From: an uncultured Gammaproteobacteria bacterium
Lineage (GTDB): Bacteria; Patescibacteriota; Microgenomatia; UBA10105; UBA927
DNA: 64,000 nt
Direction: 5' to 3'
Assembly: GCA_964629685.1 (NCBI GenBank)
Contig: CAZVTT010000001.1
Location: 449,319-513,318, forward strand
Below the pieces are notes generated by a model. That model searched no databases. It had not been told where the DNA came from and saw nothing but the letters and a program-made list of their open reading frames with translations. Below, in pieces: positions 5,550 to 50,708 of the stretch. The translations under genes were made by a program, and so were the position numbers. The stretch's first letter is position 1. Each line of letters begins with the position of its first letter.

Positions 5550-6549
5550 AATATCATACCGAACCATACTATTTATATTCGCATTCTTGGCTGCGATTTG
5601 GTTTCTACTTCAAATTCGGGATATAGTTTATCTCTTATTTGTGGCCTTTTTACTCATGACAGCCCTTAGGCCCATGGTTGAATGGCTCGCTAAATATAGG
5701 GTTCCCCGGGTTGTAGCCGTATTGTTGATTTATACGATTGTATTCGGATTTTTTGGTATATCTTTGGCAGGTGCGATACCTTCTTTAGTCTCTCAATCCG
5801 TCAGATTATTTACTGATTTACCGAATTTTGTCAGCCGGATGGTGCCGAATTGGAACATAGATGCCAGAGCATTTACTGAACAGATTGCCCCAATTAGTGA
5901 AAATGTAGTGAAGGTAACTGTCGGAATTTTTTCAAATATCGTTAACTTAATGACGGTTCTCGTGTTTAGTTTTTACTTTATTTTGGAACGTAGACATGCG
6001 GAGAAGATATTAACAGATTCATTCGGTTCTGAGGTTTCAAATCGGGTAATTTCGGTTGCACGGGATGTTGAAATTCGTTTGGGGGCATGGGTACGTGGTC
6101 AGTTGTTGCTTATGGTGATAGTAGGGGTGTTAGTGTATGTAGGATTAACAATTTTACATGTTGATTATGCATTACCCTTGGCAATTATCGCCGGAATATT
6201 GGAAATTCTCCCCATGATCGGGCCAAATTTAGCAGCAGTTCCCGGCATACTGGTAGCCTTAACGGTATCGCCCTTGCTTGCAGTTTCCGTGGCCGCTCTA
6301 TACTTTATTATTCAGCAAATAGAAAACAATATTATTGTTCCGCAGGTAATGAAAAGAAGCGTTGGTTTTTCACCCTTAGTTACTATTCTTTCATTAATGA
6401 TTGGAGCCAGAATGGCGGGGATTGTTGGGGCGGTATTGGCAGTACCGGTTGTTATTACACTGCAGGCAATACTACACGACATTTTGGTAAAGCAACCTAT
6501 TAAATTCGGAAAGCAGAAAAATGAAGACCACTCGTCATCTTCTTCATAA
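5533..6549 (+). CDS. AI-2E family transporter (UPF0118/PerM-like)
   Basis: 8 TM segments, typical AI-2E architecture. Start moved to the ATG at 5533, giving a 17-nt overlap with miaA instead of 101 nt. Confidence 0.65.
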   Translation: MTTKVEISYRTILFIFAFLAAIWFLLQIRDIVYLLFVAFLLMTALRPMVEWLAKYRVPRVVAVLLIYTIVFGFFGISLAGAIPSLVSQSVRLFTDLPNFVSRMVPNWNIDARAFTEQIAPISENVVKVTVGIFSNIVNLMTVLVFSFYFILERRHAEKILTDSFGSEVSNRVISVARDVEIRLGAWVRGQLLLMVIVGVLVYVGLTILHVDYALPLAIIAGILEILPMIGPNLAAVPGILVALTVSPLLAVSVAALYFIIQQIENNIIVPQVMKRSVGFSPLVTILSLMIGARMAGIVGAVLAVPVVITLQAILHDILVKQPIKFGKQKNEDHSSSSS

Positions 6550-33596: not shown

Positions 33597-35249
33597 ATGA
33601 AGAAATGGGATATTTTACCTCAAATACCGAAATCATTTTCAAATCCGGAAGAAATACTTCAACAACTTTTACAAAATAGGGGATTGGCAAATAGCAAAGA
33701 TGCAAATATTTTCCTGCGTCCTCCTGCTGCGTTTGATTTGAAGGCTGCAGATGTGGGAATAGATACGAAAGCTCTAAATTTAGCGGTAAAACGGATTCGG
33801 AAGGCGATTACTGCAAAAGAGTCAATTGTGGTATATGCAGACTATGATGCTGATGGTATAACCGCGGGAGCAATTATGTGGGAAACACTTTACGCTATGG
33901 GTGCACGTGTAATGCCATACATTCCCCATAGAGTAGAAGAAGGTTATGGGTTATCCATAAAGGGTATAGATAACGTACGGGCACAGTATGATCCCACACT
34001 GGTTATAACAGTAGATCATGGTATTACGGCATGGGAAAAGGTTGAATACGCCAAATCGTTGGGTATGGATGTTATTGTAACGGATCATCATACGAAACCG
34101 GAGAAGGTTCCTGATGCTATTACCGTTCACACCACGCAACTTGCCGGTTCAGGGGTGAGTTGGTTTTTGGCAAAAGAGGTATCCGGTATTCGTAATGAAG
34201 AACTTACTGCGTTGGCAACCATTGGTACTGTTGCTGACTTAGTTCCGCTTATTGGACCCAATCGCGCGATAGTAAAAGAAGGGCTTACCGCATTGAATCG
34301 AACTTCCAGGGTCGGTTTATTGGCAATGCTTACGGATGCCGGTTTAAGTCGTGGAGCATTGAGTACATACAGTATTTCGCATGTTCTTGCTCCCAGGCTG
34401 AATGCTATGGGAAGAATTGTTCATGCTATGGATGCTCTGCGTTTGCTCTGTACCAAACAAGAGGATAAGGCGATGATTCTGGCCAGGCAGTTGGGGCTAA
34501 CTAACAAAGAACGGCAACGCTTAACAGAAGATGCTTCACTTCGGGCGAAAGAATCGCTCTATGCGTTAGGAAACACTAGTAATAGTAAAAAATTATTATT
34601 TCTCGCTCATACGGAATATAACCAGGGTATAATCGGTCTTGTCGCGGGCAGGTTAGTGGAAGAATATTATCGTCCGGCAATTGTGGTGGCAATAGGCGAA
34701 GACATTTCTAAAGCGTCAGCCAGGTCTATATCCGGGTTTAATATTGTTGAAGCGATAAAAAGCTGCAGCGATCTGCTGATAGACGTCGGCGGTCATCCTA
34801 TGGCTGCCGGATTTACCGTAGAAACTAAAAATCTAACCACACTACAGCAACGGCTTGAACAGGTAGCTGAAGAACAGCTCGATCAGGAATTGTTAACCAG
34901 AAGACTCCGCATAGATGCTGAAATACCGTTAGGACTCGTAAGTGAAACGTTATGCAGCATGTTGGAACAAATGGAACCTTTTGGGTTTGGTAATCCTGAG
35001 CCGGTTTTTGTTTCCGGGCAAGTACAATTACGTGACGTCCAACTGCTGGGATCTGAAGGCAAACATTTAAAAATAAGAGTTCGCCAAGGTGAAGGACCAC
35101 TCTTTCAGGCAGTGGCATTTAGTATGGGCGATTTATACCCAAAGTTATTTCCCAATATGGTTTTTGATGTAGCATATACGGTTGAAATGAACGAATGGAA
35201 CGGAAAAAAACGACTACAATTGAAGATAAAAGATATTCATTTTGAGTAG
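33597..35249 (+). CDS. recJ: Single-stranded-DNA-specific exonuclease RecJ
   Basis: DHH motifs VVYADYDADGITAG, ITVDHG, VIVTDHH; DHHA1 GGHPMAAG. Confidence 0.85.
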   Translation: MKKWDILPQIPKSFSNPEEILQQLLQNRGLANSKDANIFLRPPAAFDLKAADVGIDTKALNLAVKRIRKAITAKESIVVYADYDADGITAGAIMWETLYAMGARVMPYIPHRVEEGYGLSIKGIDNVRAQYDPTLVITVDHGITAWEKVEYAKSLGMDVIVTDHHTKPEKVPDAITVHTTQLAGSGVSWFLAKEVSGIRNEELTALATIGTVADLVPLIGPNRAIVKEGLTALNRTSRVGLLAMLTDAGLSRGALSTYSISHVLAPRLNAMGRIVHAMDALRLLCTKQEDKAMILARQLGLTNKERQRLTEDASLRAKESLYALGNTSNSKKLLFLAHTEYNQGIIGLVAGRLVEEYYRPAIVVAIGEDISKASARSISGFNIVEAIKSCSDLLIDVGGHPMAAGFTVETKNLTTLQQRLEQVAEEQLDQELLTRRLRIDAEIPLGLVSETLCSMLEQMEPFGFGNPEPVFVSGQVQLRDVQLLGSEGKHLKIRVRQGEGPLFQAVAFSMGDLYPKLFPNMVFDVAYTVEMNEWNGKKRLQLKIKDIHFE

Positions 35250-35274
35250 TTTTAGTATTCTAAACTGAACAGGA

Positions 35275-35322
35275 AAAATCCCCACATATGATGAGTGCAT
35301 ATACTCAGATATGTGGGGATTT
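35275..35322. repeat. Strong hairpin (14-bp stem plus inner 5-bp stem), putative bidirectional terminator after recJ
   Basis: AAATCCCCACATAT...ATATGTGGGGATTT; minus-strand reading is followed by TTTTCC. Confidence 0.55.
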
Positions 35323-35342
35323 CCTATAGTCTTGGTTCATAA

Positions 35343-35403
35343 CCACCTACCTGTAATTTTCAGACGTAAAGATATCTTACGACTGGAAAAGGCAGGCAGG
35401 TGG
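35343..35403. repeat. Inverted repeat, 11-bp arms with one mismatch, 38-bp spacer containing a near-palindrome
   Basis: CCACCTACCTG ... CAGGCAGGTGG; the spacer holds CGTAAAGATATCTTACG. Confidence 0.45.
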
Positions 35404-35539
35404 TAGGAAAAAAAGAACAGAGAAACAGGGATGAATAATAGAGTAAAAAATTGCAAAAAAAACGAAACCCCGGAGGGTGAGATCCGACTTCTGGCGGGCA
35501 TAGTGCCGGATCTCAAATACTGGTGGGTTTCTCGTTCGG

Positions 35540-35743
35540 TTAGCTTTGTTGTGCGGGTATTTCTTCATCGGGGAAACTTTGTGGTTCGGCAGAACCGAGA
35601 AGACTCACCAGTCTTCTTTTCCAGTTTTTACCGAGCATCTCTGCCACTTCACCTGCACTCATATTTACGCCGCAAATTTTTGCGACGGCAGGTCTGTTTC
35701 CGACTGCGTTCCCATCCGGTGACTGAATATCGCTATTGCTTAC
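35540..35743 (-). CDS. Small hypothetical protein (68 aa) with HTH-like segment
   Basis: Start at the internal ATG preceded by AAGGAGA 8 nt upstream. AVAKICGVNMSAGEVAEMLGKNWKRRLV looks HTH-like. The track extends it 16 codons upstream without an RBS. Confidence 0.4.
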   Translation of the reverse strand, partial: VSNSDIQSPDGNAVGNRPAVAKICGVNMSAGEVAEMLGKNWKRRLVSLLGSAEPQSFPDEEIPAQQS

Positions 35744-35900
35744 CATTTGAAAATCTCCTTGTTGTATATCTGACGTATTCGAGAACCCTTTCATCTCCTG
35801 TTCTTAGTTTTCCAAGAACCGAGACCATATAGCCACCAAGAATGATGGATATATGGTCCCGGTCCTCTTTACTTGTTAATGTGCAAACTACCATTTTTGT

Positions 35901-35930
35901 TCAAAAAAAACCTCCTGTTGAGAGGAGGTT
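35901..35930 (-). terminator. Rho-independent terminator (minus orientation), repeat family member 1
   Basis: Minus strand reads AACCTCCTCTCAACAGGAGGTT followed by TTTTTTTT. Confidence 0.6.
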
Positions 35931-36065
35931 TCTTATGTACTGTTTAGTGTTATCAGTACCTCAAAACCTCCCCATCGCTGAGGAGAATAAGAATTGTAAT
36001 GACGTTTAAAATATGTATGTTCATAAATACTATGTATTACTATTTGTTAATTTGTTAAAACGATT

Positions 36066-36117
36066 AATACATCCCCGTTGTTGATCAGCGCTTCGGCTTA
36101 CAGAACGGGGATGTATT
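36066..36117. repeat. Hairpin with 14-bp stem and 24-nt loop
   Basis: AATACATCCCCGTT ... AACGGGGATGTATT; T-rich downstream on plus strand. Confidence 0.55.
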
Positions 36118-36126
36118 TATACTTCT

Positions 36127-36193
36127 GTTTCTTCTTGTCTGTGATGAACAGTTGTTAGGTTTTAACAACTAATAAAAACAGACAAGAAGAAAC
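36127..36193. repeat. Nested perfect inverted repeats (16-bp outer arms, 8-bp inner arms)
   Basis: GTTTCTTCTTGTCTGT ... ACAGACAAGAAGAAAC enclosing AGTTGTTA-ggttt-TAACAACT. Confidence 0.6.
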
Positions 36194-36285
36194 GATAACG
36201 GAGGAAAACAAAAAAATAAAAGGAAGGGACGGTCCAGCAGACGCTGTATATATTCCACTGGACCATTCTCCTGATTATGCTGGTT

Positions 36286-36570
36286 TCAGCTCTTTTTTTT
36301 CGGCTTGCGCGGATTCGTTTGTTTTTTAAGTGCCATTGCAACTTTCTGAGGTGATACTCCGGTTTCAAGCATTTCAACGACGCGGGTGAGATGAGTTATA
36401 TATCCCTCATTTGCACGGCTGGCGAGACAACCTTGCCCATGTCTAGGTGATAATGCCAGATTCCGTTCGCGGTTTAACAGTGAGAGAATATGACTTCCCG
36501 TTTGCTGATCTGCTTTTGCATAGAGCCTTTCGATTAGTTGCTGATCATCCAGTACACTGACGGTACCCAT
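36286..36570 (-). CDS. Small hypothetical protein (94 aa)
   Basis: Strong RBS GGAGGT 8 nt upstream of ATG; no recognised family. Confidence 0.5.
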   Translation of the reverse strand: MGTVSVLDDQQLIERLYAKADQQTGSHILSLLNRERNLALSPRHGQGCLASRANEGYITHLTRVVEMLETGVSPQKVAMALKKQTNPRKPKKKS

Positions 36571-36683
36571 TACTAGTTACCTCCGATATGTGAACTACCG
36601 AGCGGGCAAAACACATTTATTCAACAATATTGTTTTAAACAAAAGTGTTTTGTTCCGATCAGTAGTGTGTTAATGTGCTACGC

Positions 36684-36716
36684 AACAAAAAAACCTCCTG
36701 GTTCTTTCAGGAGGTT
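36684..36716 (-). terminator. Rho-independent terminator (minus orientation), repeat family member 2
   Basis: Minus strand reads AACCTCCTGAAAGAACCAGGAGGTT followed by TTTTTTT; about 70% identical with flanks to the 35901 element. Confidence 0.6.
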
Positions 36717-36826
36717 ACTTGGTAGTTAGTTTTTGTTACTTTCTCTACGCCACGCAACCTCCGTCCGAAATTCGGAGGACGGTAATAAAGGACATGGTCT
36801 GTTTAGCGTAGGTATTCATACAACAA
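36686..36826 (-). ncRNA. Candidate small RNA (promoter-to-terminator unit, about 140 nt)
   Basis: Bounded by a near-consensus promoter (36831-36859) and the 36684-36716 terminator; contains a stable internal hairpin CCGUCC..GGACGG; only a 24-codon ORF without an RBS. Confidence 0.35.
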
Positions 36827-36830
36827 CTAG

Positions 36831-36859
36831 ATTGTATAATGACGTCAGAATAATGTCAA
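36831..36859 (-). promoter_or_regulatory. Near-consensus sigma70 promoter on minus strand
   Basis: Minus strand reads TTGACA, 17-nt spacer, TACAAT. Confidence 0.45.
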
Positions 36860-36950
36860 ACTAGGAATACTTAAGAGCAAAATGACAAGGTTTTCAGGGG
36901 TATATGCATGTAGTGAAAAATGACTGCTTGCCGTACAATAGAAACAGCCT

Positions 36951-37451
36951 ATGGATACGGTCTCCCCAGCTCATAAATTCGCTAGCGGTAATGATGTGTA
37001 TTCCGCTATTTGTCAACTTCTTGAGCGTGAAGGTGTAGAGTTTACCGCGTATGAACATGAAGCTGTTAAAACATCACTGGAGGCTGCCGCTATCAGAAAT
37101 TCCCCCTTACATGCCGGAGCTAAGGCTATGGTATTCTATGGGGATCGGCAACCGTTGATGATTGTACTTCCGGCTGACCGTAAGGTGGATATAAAAGTAT
37201 TTAAGCATATGTACGGTATTCGGGACCTACGTATGGCATCTGCTGATGAGGTAGTTCAGCTCACGGCGGTAACAGTAGGAGCAGTTCCACCATTCGGAGG
37301 ATTATTCGGTTTACCGGTATATGTCGATGTATCTCTTTCGGAAAATGAAATTATTTTTTTTAATGCCGGGTTACATACCAAATCGTTATCCCTAAAAGAG
37401 GCTGAATACGAACGTATAATCAAACCCGTACGAGGTAATTTTAGTATTTGA
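36951..37451 (+). CDS. YbaK/ProX-type aminoacyl-tRNA deacylase domain protein
   Basis: TVGAVPPFGG and overall YbaK-domain pattern, 166 aa. Confidence 0.7.
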   Translation: MDTVSPAHKFASGNDVYSAICQLLEREGVEFTAYEHEAVKTSLEAAAIRNSPLHAGAKAMVFYGDRQPLMIVLPADRKVDIKVFKHMYGIRDLRMASADEVVQLTAVTVGAVPPFGGLFGLPVYVDVSLSENEIIFFNAGLHTKSLSLKEAEYERIIKPVRGNFSI

Positions 37452-46026: not shown

Positions 46027-46097
46027 TGCGGGATCGTATAATGGTAGTACGCATCCCTCTGGAGGATGTTATCTAGGTTCGAGTCCTAGTCCCGCAG
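46027..46097 (+). tRNA. tRNA-Gln (anticodon CUG)
   Basis: Cloverleaf folds: acceptor UGCGGGA/UCCCGCA with U1-A pair and G discriminator (both typical of bacterial tRNA-Gln). Anticodon stem CAUCC/GGAUG with loop CUCUGGA. T-arm CUAGG-UUCGAGU-CCUAG. D-loop has the GG. CCA not encoded exactly (CCCA follows). Confidence 0.75.
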
Positions 46098-49813: not shown

Positions 49814-49816
49814 TTG

Positions 49817-49859
49817 AGGTGGCTAGTTGGTTAGTCTGAACCAGAAGATAGCCACCTCT
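49817..49859 (+). terminator. Hairpin terminator between convergent deaminase and ytxH-like genes
   Basis: GAGGTGGCTA ... TAGCCACCTC 10-bp stem, 23-nt loop, T-rich tail. Confidence 0.45.
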
Positions 49860-49869
49860 ATTATCCTAC

Positions 49870-50127
49870 CTATTTTTCTACCGCTTTACGTACTTCCTTT
49901 TGTTCTTTCGCAGCTTTGTTTTTCAACGAATCTAAAGAATCTTCTATTGAATTTCCAGTATTTTTTACGGTATCAGCTACACGATCTTTTATATCTGAAA
50001 CGGTGTTGTTTATAGCAGTCCTTTTCTTTTTATCAGACAGTATCGCAGCTGCTGCAACTGCAATTCCGGCCACTACTGCACCCGTTGCTGCTCCCGCTAC
50101 TGCGGCGTTCTTATTGTTATTTTTCAT
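49870..50127 (-). CDS. YtxH-like (DUF948) general stress protein
   Basis: N-terminal Ala/Gly-rich helix NAAVAGAATGAVVAGIAVAAAAIL then charged coiled-coil tail. Confidence 0.6.
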   Translation of the reverse strand: MKNNNKNAAVAGAATGAVVAGIAVAAAAILSDKKKRTAINNTVSDIKDRVADTVKNTGNSIEDSLDSLKNKAAKEQKEVRKAVEK

Positions 50128-50161
50128 ATATTTATTCTTTCATTAAATAGTGTTAATAGCT

Positions 50162-50404
50162 TTATTTATGCAGTGCGCGTCCTAAGAAAATTAGGATGAT
50201 TGCACCAATCACGGCGACCACCAGACTGTAAAGATTAAATCCGGTTACACCTGGTTGTCCCAGGGTATTCATAACGAAACCACCAACGAATGCACCGACT
50301 ATTCCAAGTAAAATGTCTTCCAGCATCCCATGATTACTTTTCATGAGAACGTCTGCTATAAAACCTGCTAATGCTCCCAGTACAATCCAAAATATAATGT
50401 CCAT
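50162..50404 (-). CDS. GlsB/YeaQ/YmgE family stress-response membrane protein
   Basis: IVLGALAGFIADVLM...GIVGAFVGGFV...VVAVIGAIILIFL signature; RBS AAAGGA. Confidence 0.8.
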   Translation of the reverse strand: MDIIFWIVLGALAGFIADVLMKSNHGMLEDILLGIVGAFVGGFVMNTLGQPGVTGFNLYSLVVAVIGAIILIFLGRALHK

Positions 50405-50440
50405 ATTTTTCCTTTCTTAAAAATGTAATGTATTAACGTA

Positions 50441-50674
50441 TTAAGGCTCTTGATTAATATTTACGTCAATTTTATCCGGAACGTTAATCTGCGGCGTTTG
50501 AGATCCAGTTTGTGAATTATTAGATCTATCAGGTATGAACGTTTCCCGGAGTATTGGAATTCCAAACACCAGAAATAGAACTACGAAACCTATCAGGAAT
50601 ATCATTGCGAAAACGAGAGTAAAGTTATTTCCTGAATCCGTAGATGTTGCCGGATTATTTACTACTGTGGTCAT
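50441..50674 (-). CDS. Small membrane protein
   Basis: 77 aa, one TM, strong RBS AGGAGG 5 nt upstream. Confidence 0.5.
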   Translation of the reverse strand: MTTVVNNPATSTDSGNNFTLVFAMIFLIGFVVLFLVFGIPILRETFIPDRSNNSQTGSQTPQINVPDKIDVNINQEP

Positions 50675-50708
50675 ATATTCCTCCTAAATGATTAACGGGC
50701 AATAGTAT

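Follow-up and report, generated by a model that had tools for sequence, protein, structure and literature searches.

What occupies the 1.7-kb interval between recJ and ybaK in an otherwise densely coding segment of a Patescibacteria genome? The segment, referred to as the window, is a stretch of 64,000 nucleotides (nt) of contig CAZVTT010000001.1. Patescibacteria (Candidate Phyla Radiation, CPR) account for a large part of bacterial diversity and are mostly uncultured and host-dependent; to our knowledge, almost nothing is known about their gene regulation. The interval (35250-36950) is flanked on one side by the gene for RecJ (33597-35249), with DHH, DHHA1, and RecJ_OB domains, and on the other by that for a YbaK/tRNA_edit protein (36951-37451). 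An earlier reading of this DNA from its letters alone (the sequence-only reading) had called the interval gene-poor, and this was borne out: open reading frames (ORFs) of at least 100 amino acids (aa) cover 24% of the interval versus 89% of the remaining window, and it is the longest stretch of the window without such ORFs. We found only two credible genes between recJ and ybaK, ORF94 and ORF68, both on the minus strand, and each is preceded by a copy of the same leader module. The features described below suggest that the two modules are probably ribosome-mediated transcription attenuators of the trp/leu type, with leaderless leader ORFs, that control ORF94 and ORF68 in cis.

Two paralogous leader modules precede the small genes

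The modules upstream of ORF94 (module A) and ORF68 (module B) are paralogous, and each consists of a sigma70-type promoter, an ATG without a Shine-Dalgarno (SD) sequence, a mini-ORF, and four pairing segments (Table 1). Region 1 contains CCUCC and lies in a hairpin, P1. Region 2, at the 3' end of the leader ORF, is GGAGG with an extension; region 3 is an extension with AACCUCC; and region 4 is GGAGGUU followed by seven or eight U residues. The segments can pair as 1:2, 2:3, or 3:4, and the 3:4 pairing is an intrinsic terminator. In copy A, the 2:3 pairing covers 13 positions (11 Watson-Crick pairs, one G.U pair, and one G.A mismatch), and in copy B the 2:3 helix has 11 bp when drawn by hand and 14 bp in the masked fold described below. 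The -10 element of promoter PA ends 11 nt before the ATG of leader ORF A, and that of promoter PB ends 6 nt before the ATG of leader ORF B. The two related terminators and the near-consensus promoter PA had already been pointed out in the sequence-only reading, and we confirmed them; the pattern common to the terminators, AACCTCCT..AGGAGGTTTTT, occurred twice in the window and never in shuffled sequences. That reading did not include the leader ORFs of 24 and 23 codons or the second promoter, PB, nor the fact that promoter, hairpins, and terminator form a single repeated unit.

These parts are retained in related loci, which are designated here by L numbers. PA is 100% identical in L005 and is kept in L001 and L029; the start, frame, and length of leader ORF A are the same in all three; and terminator A is identical, loop included, across three lineages. 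The counterparts of leader ORF B are MNIQIFSVIIALTLLSNGEVLRY in L005 and MEYTYRNTIFIVRIILLNREGGCVE in L029. An 11-mer that lies 8-18 nt past both leader terminators (Table 1) is kept in L005, L001/L002, and L029 but not in Gottesmanbacteria-type relatives. Two readings of the 11-mer were rejected: as the -35 element of an internal promoter, because no acceptable -10 element lies at 16-18 nt, and as part of a conserved mini-ORF, because the frames differ and it is not consistently in frame with the short post-terminator ORFs.

Table 1. Features of the interval between ybaK and recJ, listed in the direction of minus-strand transcription
Feature	Position	Strand	Description
Promoter PA	36859-36831	-	TTGACA 36859-36854, 17-nt spacer, TACAAT 36836-36831; 11/12 consensus matches
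Leader ORF A	36819-36745	-	24 codons + TAG, MNTYAKQTMSFITVLRISDGGCVA; no SD
Region 1/hairpin P1, module A	36782-36763	-	CCGUCCUCCG aauuu CGGAC; inside leader ORF; anti-antiterminator side
Region 2, module A	36762-36750	-	GGAGGUUGCGUGG; 5' strand of antiterminator; ends 2 nt before leader stop
Region 3, module A	36722-36710	-	CCAAGUAACCUCC; alternative partners, region 2 or region 4
Intrinsic terminator A	36716-36687	-	AACCUCCUG aaagaac CAGGAGGUU + U7
11-mer after terminator A	36678-36668	-	GCACATTAACA; conserved
Stem-loop, ORF94 5' untranslated region (UTR)	36656-36604	-	GGAACAAAACAC...GUGUUUUGCCC; compensatory C-G to U-A change in L001; analogous hairpin in L029
SD and ORF94	SD 36584-36579; ORF 36570-36286	-	SD GGAGGT; small four-helix protein (predicted), basic tail
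Stem-loop directly 3' of ORF94	36264-36231	-	GGUCCAG...CUGGACC; conserved
Long nested hairpin	36193-36127	-	31-nt arms; compensatory C-G to U-A change in L005
Stem-loop	36116-36067	-	AUACAUCCCCGUU...AACGGGGAUGUAU; 5/16 pairs changed on both sides, four lineages
Promoter PB	36058-36031	-	TTAACA 36058-36053, 16-nt spacer, TACATA 36036-36031
Leader ORF B	36024-35953	-	23 codons + TGA, MNIHILNVITILILLSDGEVLRY
Regions 1 and 2 of switch, module B	35985-35980; 35973-35963	-	Region 1 CUCCUC; region 2 GGGGAGGUUUU
Region 3 of switch, module B	35934-35922	-	AAGAAACCUCCUC
Terminator B	35930-35903	-	AACCUCCU cucaac AGGAGGUU + U8
11-mer after terminator B	35884-35874	-	GCACATTAACA; second copy, identical
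Stem-loop, ORF68 5' UTR	35865-35816	-	G.U pairs (A-U in L005) fit minus-strand RNA only
SD and ORF68	SD 35760-35754; ORF 35746-35540	-	SD AAGGAGA; small protein
Stem-loop 3' of ORF68	35514-35479	-	GAGAUCCGGC...GUCGGAUCUC; conserved
Long conserved hairpin	35407-35343	-	CCUACCACCUGCCUG...CAGGUAGGUGG; covarying inner stem, four pairs changed on both sides, G.U to G-C
Perfect 14-bp hairpin	35322-35276	both	A and T runs on flanks; predicted bidirectional terminator, end of small-gene cluster

The leader is a conserved RNA family

Contigs with homologues of ORF94 and ORF68 keep the order ybaK, ORF94, ORF68, recJ, at nucleotide identities of ~86% in L005/L006 and ~70-75% in L001-L004. RecJ of the window shares 55-63% identity with proteins from genome bins of Gottesmanbacteria, Woesebacteria, and other Patescibacteria, which places the source organism in the Microgenomates group of the CPR. 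The arrangement of ybaK or aspS-ybaK, leader, small ORFs, and recJ is syntenic down to this level of RecJ identity, as well as in L029. In a three-way alignment, several non-coding blocks were conserved as much as the flanking genes or more; leader A was 96% and 78% identical to its two counterparts, compared with 78% and 64% for ybaK.

A covariance model, R1, was built on P1 and the terminator only. The window copies scored 116 (A) and 91 bits (B), and no other copy was detected in the 64 kb. One or two copies were present in L001, L005, L007, L008, L010-L013, L015, L017, L019, and L029, and wherever the flanks were visible, the copy was located between recJ and aspS/ybaK, in opposite orientation to these genes and divergent from aspS-ybaK. 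In addition, a degenerate terminator pattern retrieved 101 metagenome stretches, 12 of which scored at least 78 bits with R1, while ~25 more gave full-length matches of 35-65 bits. Presence/absence variation among the relatives was confined to module B (36056-35886, ~170 nt), which the L001/L002 lineage lacks and the outgroup L029 has, indicating a lineage-specific deletion. In L001/L002, ORF67 follows ORF94 without a leader of its own.

As suggested in the sequence-only reading, we scanned the locus against Rfam, whose families include Trp, Leu, Phe, His, and Thr leaders, T-box, riboswitches, OLE, GOLLD, ROOL, and HEARO. At gathering and permissive thresholds, only a tRNA (46027-46097) passed in the window, the best score within 35150-37050 was far below threshold, and the scan of 12 related loci gave nothing except one tRNA. 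No Rfam family therefore matches the locus in the window or in its relatives. The leader belongs to an RNA family that is absent from Rfam and conserved among Microgenomates-group Patescibacteria. Full-text literature searches returned no report of attenuators in Patescibacteria or the CPR. Our best reading is that the family is new, belongs to a known kind of regulator, and is the first of that kind noted in Patescibacteria.

Covariation and folding support a switch between two helices

In an alignment of 37 sequences, 94% of the cells of P1 and the terminator were paired and 11 of the 14 pairs had changed on both sides; this was matched in 0 of 500 shuffles, and slid controls reached at most 70%. 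All six pairs of P1 showed changes on both sides within the family. The terminator helix was 98.6% paired across the family and was followed by five to eight U residues. The 2:3 helix had been left out of R1 and was thus tested separately. In fixed columns, 76-78% of its cells were paired versus at most 57% in slid controls, and the number of cells changed on both sides was 80, compared with 29.5 ± 4.3 expected (0/500). These counts are diluted by a one-nucleotide bulge or register difference between window-type and Gottesmanbacteria-type leaders. Because a single fixed register under-counts pairs, we used an alignment-free test in which partners were permuted. With the invariant GGAGG/CCUCC core excluded, the region-2 extension of each sequence paired with its own region-3 extension at an average of -8.4 kcal/mol, versus -5.0 ± 0.4 kcal/mol for permuted partners (0/10,000). 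In L012, L019, and L015 the core itself is altered, and regions 2, 3, and 4 have changed together (e.g., GCGAGG/CCCCGC/GCGGGG).

When the RNA was cut before region 4, it folded into the 2:3 helix in 12 of 13 copies. Three ribosome states were simulated by constrained (masked) folding. In unmasked RNA, the terminator was the minimum-energy fold in 32 of 42 members. When everything 5' of region 2 was masked, as by a stalled ribosome, the 2:3 antiterminator was obtained in 27 of 42 members, and when a footprint mask was placed on the stop codon, the terminator returned in 32 of 35. Both window copies followed all three states.

A mini-ORF was found in 36 of the 37 copies, starting no more than a few nucleotides from the model's 5' end and stopping 5-26 nt past the region-2 core; in the 37th copy it is cut by the contig end. 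Among 28 unique leaders, stop codons between the start and region 2 numbered 1, 32, and 28 in frames 0, +1, and +2, respectively. Of 41 unique copies, 29 carried a promoter of the form TTGACA-16/18-TAnnnT that ended 6-13 nt ahead of the leader start, and SD-like tetramers between the -10 element and the leader start were confined to two copies. The promoter-adjacent start and the absence of an SD sequence suggest that the leader ORFs are probably translated from leaderless or nearly leaderless mRNA.

A second short ORF was observed in many family members (e.g., L071 at 5876-5890, L012, L019, L125, and L053), in which a mini-ORF of 3-6 codons (MAR*, MAS*, MDIYL*, or MAERR*) begins 7-8 nt past the GGAGG of the terminator. 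This spacing suggests that the 3' arm of the terminator may double as a ribosome-binding site, that is, for coupled or translational control. In the window, the corresponding place is held only by a non-conserved TTG ORF of 8-9 codons.

Proposed attenuation mechanism

We propose that transcription starts at, or a few nucleotides before, the AUG of the leader ORF, so that a ribosome would load on the 5' end of the RNA and follow the polymerase. If translation proceeds smoothly to the stop codon, 2-7 nt past region 2, the ribosome would cover region 2, the 3:4 hairpin with its U-tract would form, and the transcript would end after ~135 nt (A) or ~122 nt (B). If the leader is not translated, region 1/P1 would pair with region 2, and termination would likewise follow. 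If the ribosome instead stalls in the hydrophobic stretch ~8-15 codons into the ORF (TMSFITVL in A and VITILILL in B), region 1 would be covered and region 2 left free. A 13- to 14-bp 2:3 helix would then form before region 4 is made, the terminator would not form, and the polymerase would read through into ORF94 or ORF68.

Several observations weigh against this mechanism. The putative control codons form a mixed hydrophobic stretch and not a clean run of a single residue, and the regulated genes are neither biosynthetic nor otherwise interpretable, since the ORF94 model has no fold match and ORF68 was poorly modeled. The 2:3 extension of copy A contains the G.A mismatch and is of average strength for the family (-5.2 kcal/mol, rank 17/32), and with the upstream mask the equilibrium fold still favors the terminator in 15 of 42 members. 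The sequence of the leader peptide is poorly conserved, although its frame, length, and stop position are kept; between the window and L001, leader ORF A has 7, 10, and 5 substitutions at the three codon positions, with no third-position bias. The metagenome loci were picked by the terminator pattern, so that conservation of the 3:4 helix among them is partly by construction; neither the ORF nor the 2:3 helix entered into the selection. Finally, start sites, termination, and leaderless initiation were deduced from sequence alone.

Candidate signal

Isoleucine, leucine, valine, and phenylalanine together account for 56% of the nine codons before region 2, compared with 31% in long ORFs of the window and 18% in the N-terminal parts of the leaders. 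Part of this bias arises because the segment must complement the purine-rich region 2. The leaders of classical ilv and leu operons are hydrophobic, and the leaders here are reminiscent of them. Stalling may report a short supply of charged tRNA for these four amino acids, a proposal that we regard as possible but tentative, with the balance somewhat against it.

L045 (8495-8628), a weaker member of the same model, lies upstream of a 3-deoxy-D-arabino-heptulosonate 7-phosphate (DAHP) synthase gene, and its predicted leader, MSIQTQWYYFYFTPSK... (also written out as MSIQTQWYYFYFTPSKKEAGLSGCK), contains an unmistakable aromatic run, WYYFYF. This element supports amino-acid sensing as the general function of the architecture. 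Elements of the same architecture also precede M20 peptidase genes, whose leaders share NMW.YRFH, a gene resembling that for the alpha subunit of phenylalanyl-tRNA synthetase (PheRS-alpha), and an amino-acid kinase gene. The metagenome contigs with such cargo are L045; L030, L082, and L098; L038; and L050. The elements before the DAHP synthase, M20 peptidase, PheRS-alpha-like, and amino-acid kinase genes look like amino-acid-specific attenuators.

Comparison with known attenuators

As in the trp, leu, ilv, his, phe, and thr attenuators, a short ORF overlaps region 1, the helices 1:2, 2:3, and 3:4 are mutually exclusive, 3:4 is an intrinsic terminator, and the stop codon is placed such that a terminating ribosome would mask region 2. 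Unlike in these systems, the leader ORF lacks an SD sequence and starts 6-13 nt after the -10 element, an extra hairpin, P1, lies between regions 1 and 2, no clean run of a single codon is present, the cargo consists of small proteins instead of a biosynthetic operon, and the host belongs to a Patescibacteria (CPR) lineage. Nor do the modules match any Rfam leader in sequence or structure; the best, Phe_leader, gave 22 bits against a gathering score of 55. The proposed mechanism is thus a variation on the trp/leu paradigm, which extends known biology and does not overturn it.

Translational attenuation of the erm/cat type is similar in that the position of a ribosome on the leader peptide selects among hairpins and in that a GGAGG Shine-Dalgarno sequence makes up one arm of the final hairpin. 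In the erm/cat systems, however, ribosomes stalled by antibiotics are the trigger and resistance genes are regulated with no termination of transcription, whereas the present locus lacks a resistance gene and its hairpin has a U-tract. Leaderless polycysteine short ORFs in mycobacteria form the first cistron of their operons, and ribosomes stalled on them remodel the downstream RNA and raise operon expression; this control is reported to act on access to the ribosome-binding site and not on termination (bioRxiv 10.1101/834739, Canestrari et al.). In the modules described here, the ribosome is likewise predicted to load straight onto the 5' end of the RNA as it emerges, but it is a canonical terminator with a U-tract that competes. 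In many family members, though not convincingly in the window copies, region 4 is in addition found 7-8 nt before a start codon.

Alternative explanations

The main rival explanation is that the terminated leader RNA or its peptide is the functional product, which is compatible with attenuation and which we consider unlikely. The promoter-to-terminator units would then be independent small RNA genes of ~125-135 nt, possibly with a dual function through the 23- to 24-aa peptide, and would act in trans, their exposed CCUCC and GGAGG segments perhaps targeting ribosome-binding sites, while ORF94 and ORF68 would be transcribed separately. Since the terminator state is the predicted minimum for the free RNA in most members, short terminated RNAs should accumulate. 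The downstream cargo varies among relatives while the leader stays, and in L017 (3842-3485, minus strand) a tRNA-Gly(UCC) gene in the same orientation takes the place of the small protein gene after the leader and terminator. Functions in trans are documented for rnTrpL and peTrpL of Sinorhizobium (PMC6614838, PMC7298713), and the terminated RNA and peptide here could similarly have functions of their own; there is no evidence of targets in trans here, however, and no sequence relationship to rnTrpL/peTrpL. By contrast, no convincing promoter was found between either terminator and its ORF, and the stop codon is kept at a fixed distance from region 2. The 2:3 helix, which cannot coexist with the terminator, is maintained by covariation, an observation that is hard to explain without a switch acting in cis, and a function in trans can coexist with attenuation rather than replace it. 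The suggestion of a regulatory RNA locus in the sequence-only reading is supported for cis-acting leader/attenuator modules with tiny ORFs but not for a free-standing non-coding RNA gene.

A further possibility is a genuine switch that responds to a ligand or RNA-binding protein at P1 or region 2, as in a riboswitch or a PyrR/LicT-like system, perhaps through autoregulation by the basic tail of ORF94, the small ORF being incidental. P1 is conserved, covaries, and adjoins the switching sequence, the tail of ORF94 is rich in lysine and arginine, and the leader peptide shows no visible purifying selection, all of which would fit. This reading is nevertheless even less likely than a small RNA: the ORF is open in one frame only, starts directly at the promoter, and stops just past region 2 in nearly all copies; unlike ligand-binding aptamers, the leader has no conserved unpaired pocket outside the helices; no Rfam family matches; and most loci that carry the leader lack ORF94.

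Least likely, and in our view scarcely credible, is that the interval represents a replication origin, an att site, a type I/III toxin-antitoxin (TA) locus, or a decayed mobile element: many inverted repeats, the locally lower G+C content (0.35 at 35850-36300), the remodeling of the locus, from which the aspS part of the relatives' aspS-ybaK fusion is missing, and a promoter-RNA-terminator-ORF order superficially like that of type III TA loci would suit it, but relatives in which aspS-ybaK persists, L029 among them, show the same order and orientation, there is no integrase, transposase or other recombinase, terminal direct repeat, tandem RNA repeat, toxin family match, or adjoining tRNA, and the cumulative GC skew rises smoothly without inflection. 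No similarity was found between the region and 50,697 phage or 72,556 plasmid records, and the terminator motif had no match in viral contigs. Together with the conserved synteny, these results argue against the mobile remnant and the origin/att-like site that the sequence-only reading had also entertained, and against an insertion between recJ and ybaK, for which alignment with relatives had been proposed as a check. A ToxIN-like type III TA system was rejected because there are no tandem antitoxin RNA repeats and because ORF94 and ORF68 match no toxin family, ToxN included.

Implications of the proposed attenuator family

With ~40 examples, the locus provides a covariation-supported cis-regulatory RNA family with a clear mechanistic proposal. 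It bears on the apparent use of leaderless initiation for regulation in a Patescibacteria lineage, and it points to small, fast-evolving proteins as being under careful cellular control. With the covariance models, the element could be annotated throughout CPR genomes, and the codon content of leaders could be linked to the downstream genes, as with WYYFYF and DAHP synthase. A bolder generalization is that the module exemplifies an unrecognized class of leaderless, ribosome-coupled attenuators that is widespread among Patescibacteria and built on a quartet of SD-like and anti-SD-like segments. Such a class would report translation status (host-derived amino acids) and switch on fast-evolving small acidic and Cys-rich proteins, while the abundant terminated RNA or peptide might act in trans. 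We put this forward as speculation that is rather unlikely to hold in full; if true, it would represent the first regulatory RNA class tied to the host-dependent lifestyle and would offer an experimental handle on what these bacteria sense.

ORF94, ORF68, and other cargo

The sequence-only reading had listed two small minus-strand ORFs with ribosome-binding sites and no recognized family, and both proved to be genuine genes. Neither matched Pfam, PHROGs, or NCBIfam, and in a search of 5.8 billion proteins each was represented by just two further clusters at 90% identity, both of the same length. Substitutions relative to the two homologues at first, second, and third codon positions were 7, 4, and 31 and 26, 12, and 53 for ORF94, and 3, 3, and 18 and 16, 13, and 25 for ORF68. 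The concentration at third positions and the equal lengths of the homologues indicate that both ORFs are genuine. A profile search of 1.84 billion representatives gave one remote homologue of ORF94 (E = 1e-11), located on L029 between aspS-ybaK and recJ. Direct comparison led us to reject ORF94 and ORF68 as paralogues.

The predicted structure of ORF94 has four helices (predicted local distance difference test, 79; predicted template modeling score, 0.67) and a C-terminal tail rich in lysine and arginine, and it gave no significant fold match. For ORF68, only a poor model was obtained. The sole match in a sequence search of the PDB, eS6 for ORF68, was insignificant (E = 0.05). In relatives, the leader precedes different small proteins, many of them acidic or Cys-rich and zinc-ribbon-like. 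Upon clustering, the downstream small ORFs were mostly singletons, and the only shared cargo was ORF94, ORF68, and a few zinc-ribbon-like proteins.

Longer candidate ORFs in the interval (133 aa on the plus strand; 71 and 76 aa on the minus strand) were rejected, as their frame is lost between relatives or they show no codon-position bias. The 133-aa ORF (35431-35832), antisense to ORF68, is almost certainly spurious: it has no homologue and no Pfam, PHROGs, or NCBIfam match, and the substitutions fit the frame of ORF68. For the 34-aa/71-aa ORF over 36377-36161 and the 76-aa ORF predicted in L001/L002 (48 aa in L005), codon-position bias is lacking and T-tract insertions and deletions shift the frame among close relatives. 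No overlooked conserved protein of substantial size was found in the interval; what the sequence-only reading had missed were the two conserved mini-ORFs. The region is most likely a cluster of small minus-strand genes in two units, PA-leader A-ORF94 and PB-leader B-ORF68. The next-longest gap of this kind in the window (49814-50708) is ordinary and holds three small minus-strand genes of 85, 80, and 77 aa, which by eye appear to encode a YtxH-like protein and two membrane proteins.

Other conserved structures and the ybaK side of the locus

The interval had been described as containing at least five strong inverted repeats; we counted at least nine strong local ones. Four non-coding blocks, read on the minus strand, folded with z scores of -5.1, -6.7, -9.6, and -8.8, and 0 of 200 dinucleotide shuffles were as good. 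In addition to the modules, seven stem-loops are kept in position in up to four lineages, some with compensatory changes (Table 1), the covariation support being modest with four sequences. Their G.U pairs indicate selection on these structures as RNA of the minus strand. Most simply, they are mRNA-stabilizing or processing structures of both transcripts. The 14-bp hairpin at the recJ end of the cluster is, judging from its arms and flanks, a bidirectional terminator common to recJ (plus strand) and the small-gene operon (minus strand).

In the window, L005, and L001, ybaK is a stand-alone gene (166 aa). In more distant relatives (L007, L008, L012, L015, L017, L019, and L029), YbaK/tRNA_edit forms the C-terminus of a 613- to 647-aa fusion of aspartyl-tRNA synthetase and YbaK (AspRS-YbaK) at the same position. 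The region was rejected as a decayed aspS, since tblastn showed no remnant in 35250-36950 or in the whole window; the synthetase part was therefore either lost from the locus or moved out of it. On the plus strand, a conserved TACAAT (36934-36939) ends 11 nt before the ATG of ybaK, which has no Shine-Dalgarno sequence, and this geometry is the same as at the leader ORFs. Thus, ybaK may also be expressed from leaderless mRNA, which suggests that such initiation is common in this organism.

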